The notes under the pieces were generated by a model. The model was given only the letters and a program-made list of their open reading frames with translations. It did no database searches and was not told where the DNA came from. Positions 8,190-15,095 of a DNA stretch of 64,000 nucleotides are shown here, one piece after another (positions within the stretch are counted from its first letter, which is position 1; every line of letters starts with the position of its first letter). The DNA is taken from the NCBI GenBank assembly GCA_022340345.1, contig JAJDOE010000014.1, positions 152-64,151 of the forward strand, read 5' to 3'. The stretch comes from Gammaproteobacteria bacterium. Its GTDB lineage: Bacteria > Pseudomonadota > Gammaproteobacteria > HyVt-429. The translations under genes and the position numbers were made by a program.

Positions 8190-9734
8190 TCATATGGGCT
8201 GCCCCTGCTGGGGGTGCTCGCGGCGTCCGGGAGCGACCAGTTTGTTCAGGGCATTCACGTACGCCTTGGCCGAGGCGATAACGATATCGGTGTCCGCCCC
8301 ATGGCCGTTGACGATACGCCCGCCCCGCTCCAGCCGGACGGTGACTTCGCCCTGGGAATCCGTGCCACTGGTGATGTTATTCACCGAATACAGTTCCAGG
8401 ATCGCGCCGCTCTCGATGATTTCTTCGATGGCGCGAAATGCGGCGTCCACCGGACCACTGCCGGCAGCCCGCGCTTCACGCTCTTCACCATTCTCATTGA
8501 GCACGATCCGGGCCTCGGGAATCTCCCCCGTCTGGGAGCACACCCCCAGGGCCACCAGGTGGATGTGTCCGCCCTGGGCCAGCCCCTCTTCGGTCACCAG
8601 CGCCTGCAGATCCTCGTCGAAGATCTCGTGCTTCTTGTCCGCCAGGTCCTTGAAACGGCTGAACGCCGAGTTGATATCTTCCTCGCTGTCGAACTCGATT
8701 CCGAGTTCCAAAAGCCGCTGCCGGAATGCGTTGCGCCCGGAATGTTTCCCCAGCACGATACGATTGGCACTCCAGCCCACGTCCTCGGCGCGCATGATTT
8801 CGTAGGTTTCCCGTTTCTTGATCACGCCATCCTGGTGGATACCGGATTCGTGGGCAAAGGCATTGGCACCGACGATCGCCTTGTTGGGCTGCACCGGGAA
8901 CCCCGTGATATTCGAAACCAGGCGGCTGGCGGGCACGATCTGGGTGGTATCAATGCGGGTATCACAGTCGAACTGGTCGCGCCGCGTACGCACCGCCATC
9001 ACCACCTCTTCCAGTGCCGCATTGCCGGCACGCTCGCCAAGTCCGTTGATGGTGCATTCGACCTGGCGTGCCCCGGCGGAAACCGCCGCCAGGGAATTCG
9101 CTACCGCCAGGCCCAGGTCATTGTGGCAATGCACCGAAAATACCGCCTTGTCGGAGTTAGGCACCCGCTCCCGCAAGGTTGCAATCAGGGCACCGAACTG
9201 CTCGGGCACGTTGTAGCCGACGGTGTCGGGGATATTGACAGTGCGGGCACCGGCATCGATGACTTTCTCCAATACGCGACACAGGAAATCCGTGTCCGAG
9301 CGCCCGGCGTCTTCCGGCGAGAATTCCACATCGTCCGTGTATCCCCGGGCCCGGCGCACCGCCCACACGGCGCGCTCCAGCACTTCGTCCGGAGACATGC
9401 GCAGTTTCTCGCGCATGTGGATTGGCGAGGTGGCAATGAAGGTGTGAATCCGGCCACGAGCCGCCGGGGCGACCGCCTCGGCCGCGCGGTCAATGTCATT
9501 TTCCGTGGCTCGCGCCAGCCCGCAGACGATGCTGTCGCGCACCGCCGCCGCCACTGCCTGCACCGATTCGAAATCTCCGGGACTGGCGGCGGGGAAACCC
9601 GCCTCGATGATGTCCACCCGCATCCGCTCCAGTACCCGCGCAATGCGCACCTTCTCGTCCCGGTTCATGGAGGCGCCCGGGCTCTGCTCGCCGTCGCGCA
9701 AGGTCGTGTCAAAAATAAAAAGTGTATCGCTCAT
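8190..9734 (-). CDS. leuA: 2-isopropylmalate synthase
   Basis: [23 protein letters not shown]…[17 protein letters not shown]… Start at MSDT (9734); the upstream 23 codons of the track ORF lack an RBS context. Confidence 0.95.
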
Positions 9735-9898
9735 GGTTCTGGTCCGTTCGCGCGCGTTGCCGCCTGGGCGGAACCCGCCGGGTTGGCCGACTGCTGGAAG
9801 CAACCCGTGTTGCAGCAGCCTGCGTGGATACCAGGACGTTTTTGACGTCCCGTATCAGAGAAAAAAGCCGAATTTTGGGAAAGGGGGAGTGTCTGCGC

Positions 9899-9955
9899 CT
9901 AGCGGCGCAGCAGCAGAAGGCCCAGGAGGGGCGAATGGAGGACTGCAGACTTCAT
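9899..9955 (-). CDS. leuL: Leucine leader peptide (leu attenuation leader) upstream of leuA
   Basis: 18-codon ORF MKSAVLHSPLLGLLLLRR* with 7 Leu in the last 10 codons. It sits 165 nt upstream of leuA on the same strand and is followed by hairpins (for example the palindrome CTGCGCCtagcGGCGCAG over its stop). Confidence 0.55.
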   Translation of the reverse strand: MKSAVLHSPLLGLLLLRR

Positions 9956-9989
9956 GGGCGCAGATTTATACGCGTCACGCGAGCGGATT

Positions 9990-10775
9990 TCAAGTCCCGC
10001 CGGGGCCCTCGCCCGGTCGTTTGCGCCGAGCGGTTTTTTCGCCACTCCGAACGGCCGCGCCGGAGCGTCCGGCCCGGCGCCGGACCAGCCAGGTTGCCGG
10101 CCCGGAGAGAGCATAGATTGCGAACAGCGCGAACAGAACGTGGGCGGGATCGAAGGACACCAGCACGATGCCGAACACGATAGCCAGGGTTGCCACGAAT
10201 GGAATCTTGTCCTTGAGGTCGATGTCCTTGAAACTGCGAAACGGCAGGTTACTGACCATCATGAGCGCCAGGTACACGGTCAGCAGCATCACCGGCAGTG
10301 CGAAATCGGCGCCCACCAGGCCGTATCCATCGATGACCCATACCAGCCCCGCGACCACCGCCGCTGCCGCCGGGCATGGCAGGCCCTGAAAAAAACTGCT
10401 GTCCGTGTGTTTCTGGGTATTAAAACGCGCGAGGCGCAGTCCCACCGCGGCGGCAAAAACGAAGGCCACCAGCCAACCGGCCTTGCCACGCCCCTGCAAG
10501 GCCCACTCGTACAGAACCAGCGCCGGGGTCATGCCAAAGGACACCATGTCCACCAGGCTGTCATATTGCAGACCAAAGTCCGAAGTCGTGCGCGTCAGGC
10601 GAGCCACCCGCCCGTCCAGACCATCCATCACCAGGGCGATGAAGATCGCCATGGCCGCTTCGTCGAAGTGGCCCGCCTGGGCGCGCACGATAGCGAAAAA
10701 GCCGGCAAACAGTCCGGCGGTGGTCAGCAGGTTGGGCAGGATGTAAATGCCCTTTACGGGTGTTTTTTCTTCCAT
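9990..10775 (-). CDS. pssA: CDP-diacylglycerol--serine O-phosphatidyltransferase (CDP-alcohol phosphatidyltransferase type)
   Basis: DGLDGRVAR…LVDMVSFG is the CDP-alcohol phosphatidyltransferase motif; 261 aa, multi-TM. Confidence 0.9.
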   Translation of the reverse strand: MEEKTPVKGIYILPNLLTTAGLFAGFFAIVRAQAGHFDEAAMAIFIALVMDGLDGRVARLTRTTSDFGLQYDSLVDMVSFGMTPALVLYEWALQGRGKAGWLVAFVFAAAVGLRLARFNTQKHTDSSFFQGLPCPAAAAVVAGLVWVIDGYGLVGADFALPVMLLTVYLALMMVSNLPFRSFKDIDLKDKIPFVATLAIVFGIVLVSFDPAHVLFALFAIYALSGPATWLVRRRAGRSGAAVRSGEKTARRKRPGEGPGGT

Positions 10776-12610: not shown

Positions 12611-12685
12611 TCAACATTCTGCAGGCGCCTTAGAACGCGTGAAGAACAGAGGAATCGGTAAACCACGTTTTCCGATTTCGTTGAG

Positions 12686-12709
12686 AAAAACGACACGAAT
12701 GTCGTTTTT
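12686..12709 (-). terminator. Rho-independent terminator downstream of ilvH
   Basis: AAAAACGACAcgaaTGTCGTTTTT has a 10-bp perfect stem and 4-nt loop with T/A runs on both sides; it lies 8 nt after the ilvH stop. Confidence 0.6.
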
Positions 12710-12716
12710 CGGTATT

Positions 12717-14944: not shown

Positions 14945-14972
14945 TTTGCTGTCTGCTCGCTGGTATGTCAGG

Positions 14973-15002
14973 CACAAAAAACGCCCGCAGCCCGGGCGTT
15001 TC
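14973..15002 (-). terminator. Rho-independent terminator after cysS, immediately upstream of ilvI
   Basis: On the minus strand AAACGCCCGGgctgCGGGCGTTT is followed by TTTTTGTG. It lies 94 nt after the cysS stop and about 30 nt before the ilvI ATG. Confidence 0.6.
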
Positions 15003-15095
15003 TTCTGCAAGTCGCTTGCGGAAGTGCGGAGCGGGAAGGTAACGGATCAGCGGGCAAGCGGTCAACCGCCCACTTGGGGGGGAATCCGGGGCGCT

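Follow-up and report, generated by a model that had tools for sequence, protein, structure and literature searches.

Leader-peptide attenuation is known mainly from enteric bacteria, in which the state of the leader is read out by an intrinsic terminator. Control of leuA by leader peptides has been described in Proteobacteria (PMC5314783) and in Actinobacteria (PMC1262725). Here we analyzed an 18-codon leader open reading frame (ORF) upstream of leuA in a stretch of 64,000 nucleotides (nt) of contig JAJDOE010000014.1 (the whole stretch is referred to as the window), which comes from an uncultured gammaproteobacterial metagenome-assembled genome (MAG). The product of leuA is MCG6870817.1, annotated as 2-isopropylmalate synthase. 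The ORF is genuine and conserved, and very probably acts as a translated leucine sensor for leuA. Its leaderless arrangement, predicted from the promoter position, and the missing terminator are the points of interest in this variant of the known leader-peptide control of leuA.

The locus shares several features with leuL of Escherichia coli and Salmonella (RF00512), namely a short ORF with a Leu run upstream of leuA, a hairpin over the leader end, and the same presumed logic, by which hungry Leu codons would stall the ribosome and increase leuA expression. Unlike leuL, the window has no intrinsic terminator, no demonstrable antiterminator and no match to RF00512. Its leader is predicted to be leaderless and has no Shine-Dalgarno sequence, the Leu run is located at the very C-terminus adjoining the stop codon, and the only target of the element would be leuA, not leuABCD.

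Actinobacteria commonly have leaderless mRNAs, which are unusual in Gammaproteobacteria. The actinobacterial LEU element upstream of leuA resembles the window in having a leader ORF with a Leu run before leuA and no obvious terminator, and its Leu codons have been proposed to pair with the Shine-Dalgarno sequence of leuA (Seliverstov et al. 2005, PMC1262725, where Konan and Yanofsky 2000 is cited). However, the LEU element belongs to another phylum, its pseudoknot was not found in the window, and the likeness is one of description, not of sequence similarity. For the mycobacterial poly-Cys small ORF attenuators, experiments have shown that the ribosome-binding site is sequestered (Canestrari et al. 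2020, bioRxiv 10.1101/834739). The features in common with the window are a short ORF, predicted to be leaderless in the window, with a codon run for the pathway amino acid, the absence of a terminator, and a stalled ribosome as the presumed signal, whereas the support for sequestration in the window is computational and weak.

The requirements for Rho-loading (rut) sites and the precedents of lambda tR1 and tna are well established. Similarly to the tnaC-tnaA region, the leader ORF in the window directly precedes a C-rich unstructured region without an intrinsic terminator, so placed that a ribosome held on the leader would block Rho loading, and the hairpin between two C-rich halves is reminiscent of rutA-boxB-rutB in lambda tR1. 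In contrast to the window, free tryptophan is the signal in tna, where it makes the ribosome stall at the stop codon and a catabolic operon is induced; the stall in the window would occur at hungry Leu codons and induce a biosynthetic gene, and the involvement of Rho is only inferred.

Conserved leader ORF, its hairpin and its putative promoter

The leader peptide MKSAVLHSPLLGLLLLRR contains 7 Leu among 18 residues, six of them in codons 10-16 (Table 1). As the initial annotation had claimed, the ORF is present upstream of leuA and is concealed as the tail of a 71-amino acid (aa) ORF. The longer ORF (9899..10114) overlaps the 3' end of pssA out of frame, and its call should here give way to the 18-aa leader. 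A spacer of 164 nt separates the leader stop codon from leuA. No other ATG-started ORF of 10-60 aa, in any of the six frames of the 64-kb window, has five or more Leu among its last nine residues.

We fetched 160 loci encoding LeuA relatives, the first 76 usable of which give the counts out of 76 below; codon and residue statistics are based on 95 non-redundant leaders of gamma- and beta-proteobacterial relatives. The closest LeuA relatives, with 82-83% identity, occur in Acidiferrobacterales and 'Muproteobacteria' MAGs, and no relative above 83% identity was found in genome or metagenome scans. A Leu-tailed small ORF within 350 nt upstream of leuA was identified on the sense strand of 44 of the 76 relatives and on the antisense strand of none (0/76), compared with a mean of 1.9/76 and a maximum of 5 in shuffled controls. 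Conservation of the Leu-run ORF in related genomes, which had been proposed as a check of the prediction, is thereby confirmed.

The composition of these leaders shows what is under constraint. Leu accounts for 45% of the last 12 residues and is found at each position from -10 to -2 before the stop codon in 34-72 of the 95 leaders. All six Leu codons are in use (CUG 273, CUC 79, CUA 51, UUA 44, CUU 42 and UUG 25), and Arg is encoded by CGN as well as by AGA/AGG; thus, the constraint acts on peptide or codon identity and not on the RNA sequence. Such a constraint on codon meaning is what a translated sensor ORF would predict. The leaders end with LLP-stop in 45 cases and with LRR-stop, the type seen in the window, in 11. 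Pro directly precedes the stop codon in 53 of the 95 leaders, typically as RLLP-stop. Termination is slow at a Pro-stop context, TnaC being an example; in the window, by contrast, Arg-Arg-stop forms the end of the leader. With 18 aa it is also short compared with the 25-41 aa typical of the relatives.

The palindrome across the leader stop, reported by the initial annotation, does fold into a stable hairpin (P1). The UAG stop codon extends from the loop into the 3' arm, of which it occupies the first base, and the last Leu codon and the Arg codons form the 5' arm. Since the 5' arm is made up of the final Leu codon and the Arg or Pro codons, stalling in the Leu run would require the ribosome to melt P1. 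A hairpin of the 1:2 type overlapping the leader end is thus present in the window, and it is conserved and covarying in relatives, where it always contains or adjoins the stop codon. The 40-nt stretch around the leader stop in relatives folds at -10.6 kcal/mol compared with -6.7 kcal/mol in shuffles, and cognate P1 arms form 5.2 of 6 pairs compared with 3.2 of 6 for non-cognate arms, with the caveat that the stems were chosen by RNAfold. In total, 26 distinct 5-bp stems were observed, including UGCCC/GGGCA, GCGCC/GGCGC, CUGCC/GGCAG and GCCGC/GCGGC.

The third conserved component is a putative sigma-70 promoter that abuts the leader. Its -10 box ends 9 nt before the leader ATG, which places the predicted transcription start at about 9958, 2-3 nt before the ATG. 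A consensus scanner passed over this promoter, as the final base of the -10 box is A, not T. In relatives, a TANNNT box (mostly TATAGT or TATATT) ending 6-10 nt before the leader ATG was found in 56 of 89 cases (63%), compared with 4.3% for other ATGs, and in 45 of 89 it is accompanied by a TTG -35 box 16-18 nt upstream, for which the background is 0.46%. No Shine-Dalgarno sequence precedes the leader ATG in the window or in the leaders of relatives. Since the -10 box ends 6-10 nt before the ATG, the leader ORFs are predicted to be leaderless or to have a 5' untranslated region (UTR) no longer than 4 nt; the ORF in the window is probably leaderless or nearly so. Conserved leaderless translation is unusual in Gamma- and Betaproteobacteria.

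The pssA stop codon TGA (9992-9990) sits within the -35 hexamer of the leader promoter (9993-9988). There is no terminator after pssA, and read-through RNAs from ilvIH-ilvC-psd-pssA would hold the leader ORF internally, without a Shine-Dalgarno sequence; only transcripts from the leader's own promoter should be sensed.

The absence of a Shine-Dalgarno sequence before the ATG and the ability of the CUGCUG repeats to pair with CAGCAG in the downstream hairpin P3 would also suit an ORF that is never translated. In that case, the CUG-rich stretch and the hairpins would constitute an RNA or DNA element (such as a protein-binding site or a structure in the pssA 3' UTR), with the Leu run arising only incidentally from CUG repeats. 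We consider this highly improbable: the relatives retain Leu by means of UUA, UUG, CUA, CUC and CUU codons; conservation extends to the reading frame, to the place of the stop codon relative to P1 and to the distance from promoter to ATG; and such ORFs are missing from the antisense strand (0/76).

Table 1. Features of the leuA leader region (window coordinates)
Feature	Position	Strand	Description
Putative sigma-70 promoter	9965..9993	-	TTGAAA (9993-9988), 17-nt spacer, TATAAA (9970-9965); sequence reading
Leader ORF	9899..9955	-	18 codons and stop, MKSAVLHSPLLGLLLLRR-stop; ATG 9955-9953, TAG 9901-9899; sequence reading, ORF list
Leu-codon run	9908..9928	-	codons 10-16, CUC CUG GGC CUU CUG CUG CUG; presumed stall site when charged tRNA-Leu is scarce
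P1 hairpin	9893..9910	-	CUGCGCC-GCUA-GGCGCAG; -15.1 kcal/mol, z = -3.64 vs dinucleotide shuffles
Pyrimidine-rich, G-poor unstructured tract	9850..9892	-	ACACUCCCCCUUUCCCAAAAUUCGGCUUUUUUCUCUGAUACGG, U6 at 9866-9861; candidate rut site, possibly truncated terminator
P2' hairpin	9827..9856	-	GAUACGGGACGU-CAAAA-ACGUCCUGGUAUC; -14.5 kcal/mol, z = -3.58; not called by terminator scan
P3 hairpin	9786..9823	-	GC.GGCUGCUGCAAC-ACGG-GUUGC..CAGCAGUC.GC; -18.0 kcal/mol, z = -1.69, marginal
leuA ribosome-binding region and ATG (9734-9732)	9731..9757	-	in the minimum-energy fold, paired with the first ~25 nt of the leader transcript
leuA, 2-isopropylmalate synthase	8190..9734	-	514 aa; Pfam HMGL-like, HCS_D2 and LeuA_dimer domains; presumed regulated gene

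Search for a terminator and antiterminator of the leuL type

The initial annotation regarded the Leu-rich leader as the hallmark of leuL-type attenuation. The sensor half of this model is strongly supported by the conserved Leu leader ORF, the stop-codon hairpin and the predicted promoter; the output half is not supported, as the terminator, an antiterminator partner and an Rfam match are all lacking. Neither the scan tool nor our own scanner detected a terminator-like site at 9500-10300. Between the leader and leuA no hairpin adjoins a U tract, the U6 run being without a preceding hairpin, so the element that defines the output of a leuL-type attenuator is missing here. The 49 nt before and across the U6 run (9898-9850) fold at only -1.6 kcal/mol (z = +1.65), more weakly than shuffles.

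The organism uses canonical terminators elsewhere, for example in the cysS-ilvI spacer, and the first 20 kb of the window contain 25 terminator-like sites compared with 14.0 ± 3.3 in shuffles; the scan tool overlooks terminators whose stem can extend into the U tract, as in locus L029 and in the cysS-ilvI spacer. In gamma-proteobacterial relatives, the last 200 nt before leuA contain a terminator-like site on the sense strand in 8 of 76 loci and on the antisense strand in 7 of 76.

The second palindrome of the initial annotation, GGACGT-TTTTG-ACGTCC, also folds as claimed and forms hairpin P2', which has no U tract after it and may be a pause or structural element. The U6 run could in principle pair with the A5 loop of P2' in a pseudoknot, which we rejected for steric reasons, since 4 nt would need to cross a 12-bp stem. 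Farther downstream lies P3, in which the 3' arm, CAGCAG, could instead pair with the CUGCUG Leu codons of the leader; this alternative pairing is present in the minimum-energy fold and is not better than in shuffles. After P3 there is a G+C-rich stretch no more structured than shuffles, followed by a weak ribosome-binding site.

Folding of the region, suggested by the initial annotation as a way to reveal mutually exclusive terminator and antiterminator structures, yielded no terminator, and alternative pairings were no better than those of shuffled sequences. The duplex between the leader tail and the spacer in the window (-37.6 kcal/mol, z = -1.1) and that between the leader tail and the ribosome-binding site (-21.0 kcal/mol, z = -0.7) are both matched by shuffled tails; many pairings are possible in the window because of its 64% G+C content. 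Across relatives, no co-evolving downstream partner of the P1 3' arm (which would be region 2) was found, and a classical 2:3 antiterminator was rejected, as cognate pairs have no advantage over non-cognate ones (-8.69 vs -8.68 kcal/mol). The P1 3' arm is complementary to a P2 5' arm in one subgroup only, exemplified by GGGGCAG and CUGCCCC in L057. The Rfam Leu_leader profile (RF00512) had no match at E-values up to 10 in 9600-10100, and no relevant Rfam family was found in seven relatives at E-values up to 1.

Classical attenuation, in which stalling at Leu codons selects an antiterminator over an intrinsic terminator with its U tract, is thus largely refuted, and we regard it as very improbable in this locus. 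It has in its favor the leader ORF with a 1:2-like hairpin at the stop, the U6 run at 9866-9861, and the beta-proteobacterial relatives such as L097, which hold a true terminator between the leader and leuA. Against it stand the empty scan, the weak fold around U6, P2' without following U residues, the P1 3' arm without a co-evolving partner and the unmatched Rfam profile; moreover, masking the Leu run barely moved the predicted terminator probability even in the terminator-bearing loci L097, L118 and L094.

These beta-proteobacterial members of the family (Sulfuricella, Nitrosospira and related contigs; L097, L118, L111, L032, L029, L030 and L094) possess a real intrinsic terminator in the leader-leuA interval. 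In L097 it is GAATCGGCTAAACTGCCGGTTT followed by TTTTG, and the terminators of L118, L032, L029 and L030 were recognised by eye. The leader peptides of this type are conserved beyond the Leu run (..FVSY.AN.LL..LLLR.., as in ..NQFVSYLANVLLASLLLRVAR and ..SFVSYRANLLLVGLLLRRRR), and a conserved hairpin, CUGGCCA..UGGCCAG, lies within the leader ORF. Equilibrium folding revealed no antiterminator in the beta-type relatives, and masking of the Leu run had no consistent effect on the terminator.

The window and L097 share ACTCCCCCTTTC, TCGGC and a T6-7 run in the same order, and the window lacks the segment TAAACTGCCGG. The shared 12-mer and the order of these motifs suggest that the pyrimidine tract of the window is a truncated terminator of the L097 type. 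It could follow that the lineage inherited such an attenuator, lost the terminator loop and 3' arm, and now keeps a decaying relic that regulates leuA weakly or no longer. The main control of leuA would then rest with its promoter, with transcripts reading through from ilvIH-ilvC-psd-pssA and with feedback inhibition of the LeuA enzyme. The unusually short leader (18 aa vs 25-41 aa) and the imperfect -10 box would be in line with decay. Nonetheless, we consider a relic improbable. Several relatives with a LeuA only 75-82% identical to that of the window have exactly the same Leu run, P1 and CUGCUGCGCCGCUAGGCGCA, which argues for continuing selection; L008, L013, L003 and L004 are also without a terminator and have kept the leader; and automatic alignment (MAFFT) failed to reproduce the proposed deletion.

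Possible Rho-dependent termination or ribosome-binding-site occlusion

Our preferred reading of the output in the window, held tentatively and at slightly less than even confidence, is Rho-dependent premature termination that is relieved by a stalled ribosome. The promoter overlapping the end of pssA would start the transcript almost exactly at the AUG of the 18-codon leader. When leucine is plentiful, the ribosome would arrive at the UAG inside P1 and depart, leaving bare a C-rich and G-poor RNA that comprises the 3' half of the leader, P1 and the unstructured pyrimidine tract with U6. This RNA would serve as a Rho-loading site, and Rho would then halt transcription inside the 164-nt spacer. 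When charged tRNA-Leu is scarce, the ribosome would stall in the Leu run, cover the C-rich 3' half of the leader and melt P1; with half of the loading site masked, RNA polymerase would get to leuA.

RNA of rut-like character (C-rich, G-poor, unstructured and without an intrinsic terminator) is indeed found beside the leader stop in the window. The 41 nt at 9890-9850 contain 14 C, 5 G and 29 pyrimidines, and the peak C/G ratio, 2.19 in a 78-nt window over the leader and the tract, corresponds to the 99.8th percentile of both strands of the contig. In relatives, measured against the local background, the C/G ratio of the leader region has its median at the 97.6th percentile; for the 78 nt that follow the stop codon the value is the 81st percentile, and 40% of loci reach the 90th or more. 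Across the family, C minus G reaches 0.22 at +10 to +20 after the stop. With two C-rich segments on either side of a hairpin and little structure otherwise, the layout is reminiscent of a site for Rho loading.

Several points weigh against this reading. The C-richness of the leader is partly a result of its CUN, CCN and CGN codons, and the downstream half of the pyrimidine-rich region would stay uncovered by a ribosome stalled at the Leu run. Rho-dependent termination leaves P2' and P3 unexplained, as well as the GGCG-loop hairpin and ACGCA box that many relatives carry (see below). The -10 box of the window lacks the usual final T. Some beta-proteobacterial relatives have intrinsic terminators, so the family is not uniformly of the Rho type and the window could be a decayed version. 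Finally, as no relative exceeds 83% LeuA identity, the window's own spacer is outside the reach of covariation analysis.

The main rival to a Rho-dependent output is translational attenuation by occlusion of the leuA ribosome-binding site, which is plausible and has good precedent; we rate it as rather unlikely. In this scheme, the ribosome-binding site and start codon of leuA would be paired with leader RNA, and a ribosome stalled in the Leu run would free leuA for translation. The occluding partner would be the first ~25 nt of the leader in the window and the Leu codons, a natural anti-Shine-Dalgarno sequence, in relatives; loss of leuA translation could also bring Rho polarity. Precedents are provided by the mycobacterial attenuators (Canestrari et al., bioRxiv 10.1101/834739) and the actinobacterial LEU element (PMC1262725).

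Several observations speak for this scheme. The minimum-energy fold of the window pairs CAUG..GUCUG..GUCC..UUCGC with GCGCGAACGGACCAGAACCAUG, closing the whole leader. The site has a mean unpaired probability of 0.19, which increases to 0.39-0.55 when a 30-nt footprint on Leu10-Leu14 is forced open, and a ribosome at the stop codon leaves it at 0.18-0.19; however, footprints on Leu15 or Leu16 leave the site closed as well (0.18-0.19). Across the family, masking the Leu run opens the site by a small increment of +0.03 to +0.04. Cognate pairs of leader tail and site are better by -1.65 kcal/mol after removal of row and column effects (p = 2e-5), the ribosome-binding sequence of many relatives, GGAGCAG, is the complement of CUGCUCC, and Methylococcales relatives keep a local hairpin, CUCCAU..AUGGAG, that pairs the Shine-Dalgarno sequence.

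On the other hand, the native accessibility of the site (0.378) does not differ from that with dinucleotide-shuffled upstream RNA (0.386, p = 0.88), and the same is seen in the window (0.36 native vs 0.39 with shuffled upstream RNA). Pairs between the site and the leader tail number 4.6 compared with 3.2 in shuffles (p = 0.09), and the window duplexes described above are no better than shuffles (z = -0.7 and -1.1). The raw duplex energy of the leuA site with the upstream RNA gave no signal against shuffled sites (mean z = -0.09), and the Shine-Dalgarno sequence of leuA in the window is weak.

Output regions in relatives and gene order around leuA

Downstream of the leader stop, the relatives fall into several types besides the terminator-bearing one. 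In 41 loci, a hairpin whose GGCG loop is invariant lies 10-60 nt after the leader stop, and after it come an A-rich spacer and an ACGCA box. The carriers include L001 and L002, which encode the closest LeuA relatives, as well as L006, L007, L048, L053, L057 and L160; the module is absent from the window and was not found in Rfam. The hairpin covaries, with U-A in 23 and C-G in 6 loci at the closing pair, and C-G in 15 and U-A in 13 at the fourth pair. The GCG of the loop can pair with the CGC of the box, so an H-type pseudoknot may form, and L122 shows a single compensatory change (loop GACG, box ACGU). Loop and box are also complementary to the ...CUGCG/CUGCC codons of the leader. We also considered whether CCTGGCGAGG...ACGCA might be a promoter for sigma-54 or an element like the T-box, and rejected both readings in view of the variable spacing, the covarying stem and the lack of conservation of UGG.

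In relatives of the Methylococcaceae type (L047, L061, L101, L103, L128, L155 and L159), a conserved local hairpin, UCUCCAU-NN-AUGGAG, is located in the last 25 nt before leuA, with UUUUU and the AUG after it. Pairing of the leuA Shine-Dalgarno sequence with an anti-Shine-Dalgarno sequence in this hairpin suggests translational control in the clade. An apparent compensatory change in the corresponding hairpin of L123 is actually a U-U mismatch and was not counted.

One conserved sensor is thus joined to several different outputs across relatives. The sensor, composed of the Leu run, the stop-codon hairpin and the promoter abutting the ATG, is conserved across uncultured sulfur-, iron-, methane- and ammonia-oxidising lineages; the readout varies among lineages and is not of the textbook type in the window. 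Possibly, though we hold this with less assurance than the Rho-dependent reading, the window is a member of a widespread and apparently uncatalogued class of Leu-sensing leader ORFs in non-enteric Gamma- and Betaproteobacteria, whose range would include Acidiferrobacterales, 'Muproteobacteria', Methylococcales, Thiogranum, Sulfuricella and Nitrosospira. Its members would be leaderless, end in LLLRLLP-stop or LLLLRR-stop, enclose the stop codon in a hairpin, in most cases have no intrinsic terminator, and use a non-classical output (masking of a Rho site, or the module of GGCG loop and ACGCA box).

If true, this would mean that amino acid-sensing leader ORFs of Proteobacteria can be leaderless and terminator-independent, as in mycobacteria. 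It would also supply a family that is missing from Rfam and improve the annotation of 5' regions in MAGs, and would offer a tractable system for studying how a single sensor is rewired to an intrinsic terminator, to Rho or to occlusion of a ribosome-binding site.

The genes on the minus strand are arranged in the order ilvI (15010-13208), ilvH, ilvC, psd, pssA (10775-9990), leader, leuA (9734-8190), a UDG-family gene (UDG) and a GNAT acetyltransferase gene (rimI). The gap between pssA and leuA is 255 nt, and the leader ORF lies inside it. The leuA ATG at 9734 is backed by N-terminal agreement with 76 homologues, which share a conserved N-terminus starting with M. The initial annotation had placed leuA apart from leuBCD in this genome; the gene order around leuA is consistent with such a separation, and this holds at the scale of the contig.

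Two further hairpins are located in the ilv part of the region. The cysS-ilvI spacer (14972-15003, minus strand) contains a canonical terminator-like hairpin, AACGCCCG-GGCUG-CGGGCGUU, followed by U6; the likely ilvI ATG (14945) comes ~30 nt after it. The hairpin may be either the cysS terminator or an ilvIH attenuator; no Ile-, Leu- or Val-rich leader ORF was seen by the hairpin. The ilvH-ilvC spacer contains a perfect 11-bp palindromic hairpin, GAAAAACGACA-CGAA-TGTCGTTTTTC, at 12685-12710, with A and T runs flanking it. Located inside the apparent ilvIH-ilvC cluster, it looks like a bidirectional terminator.

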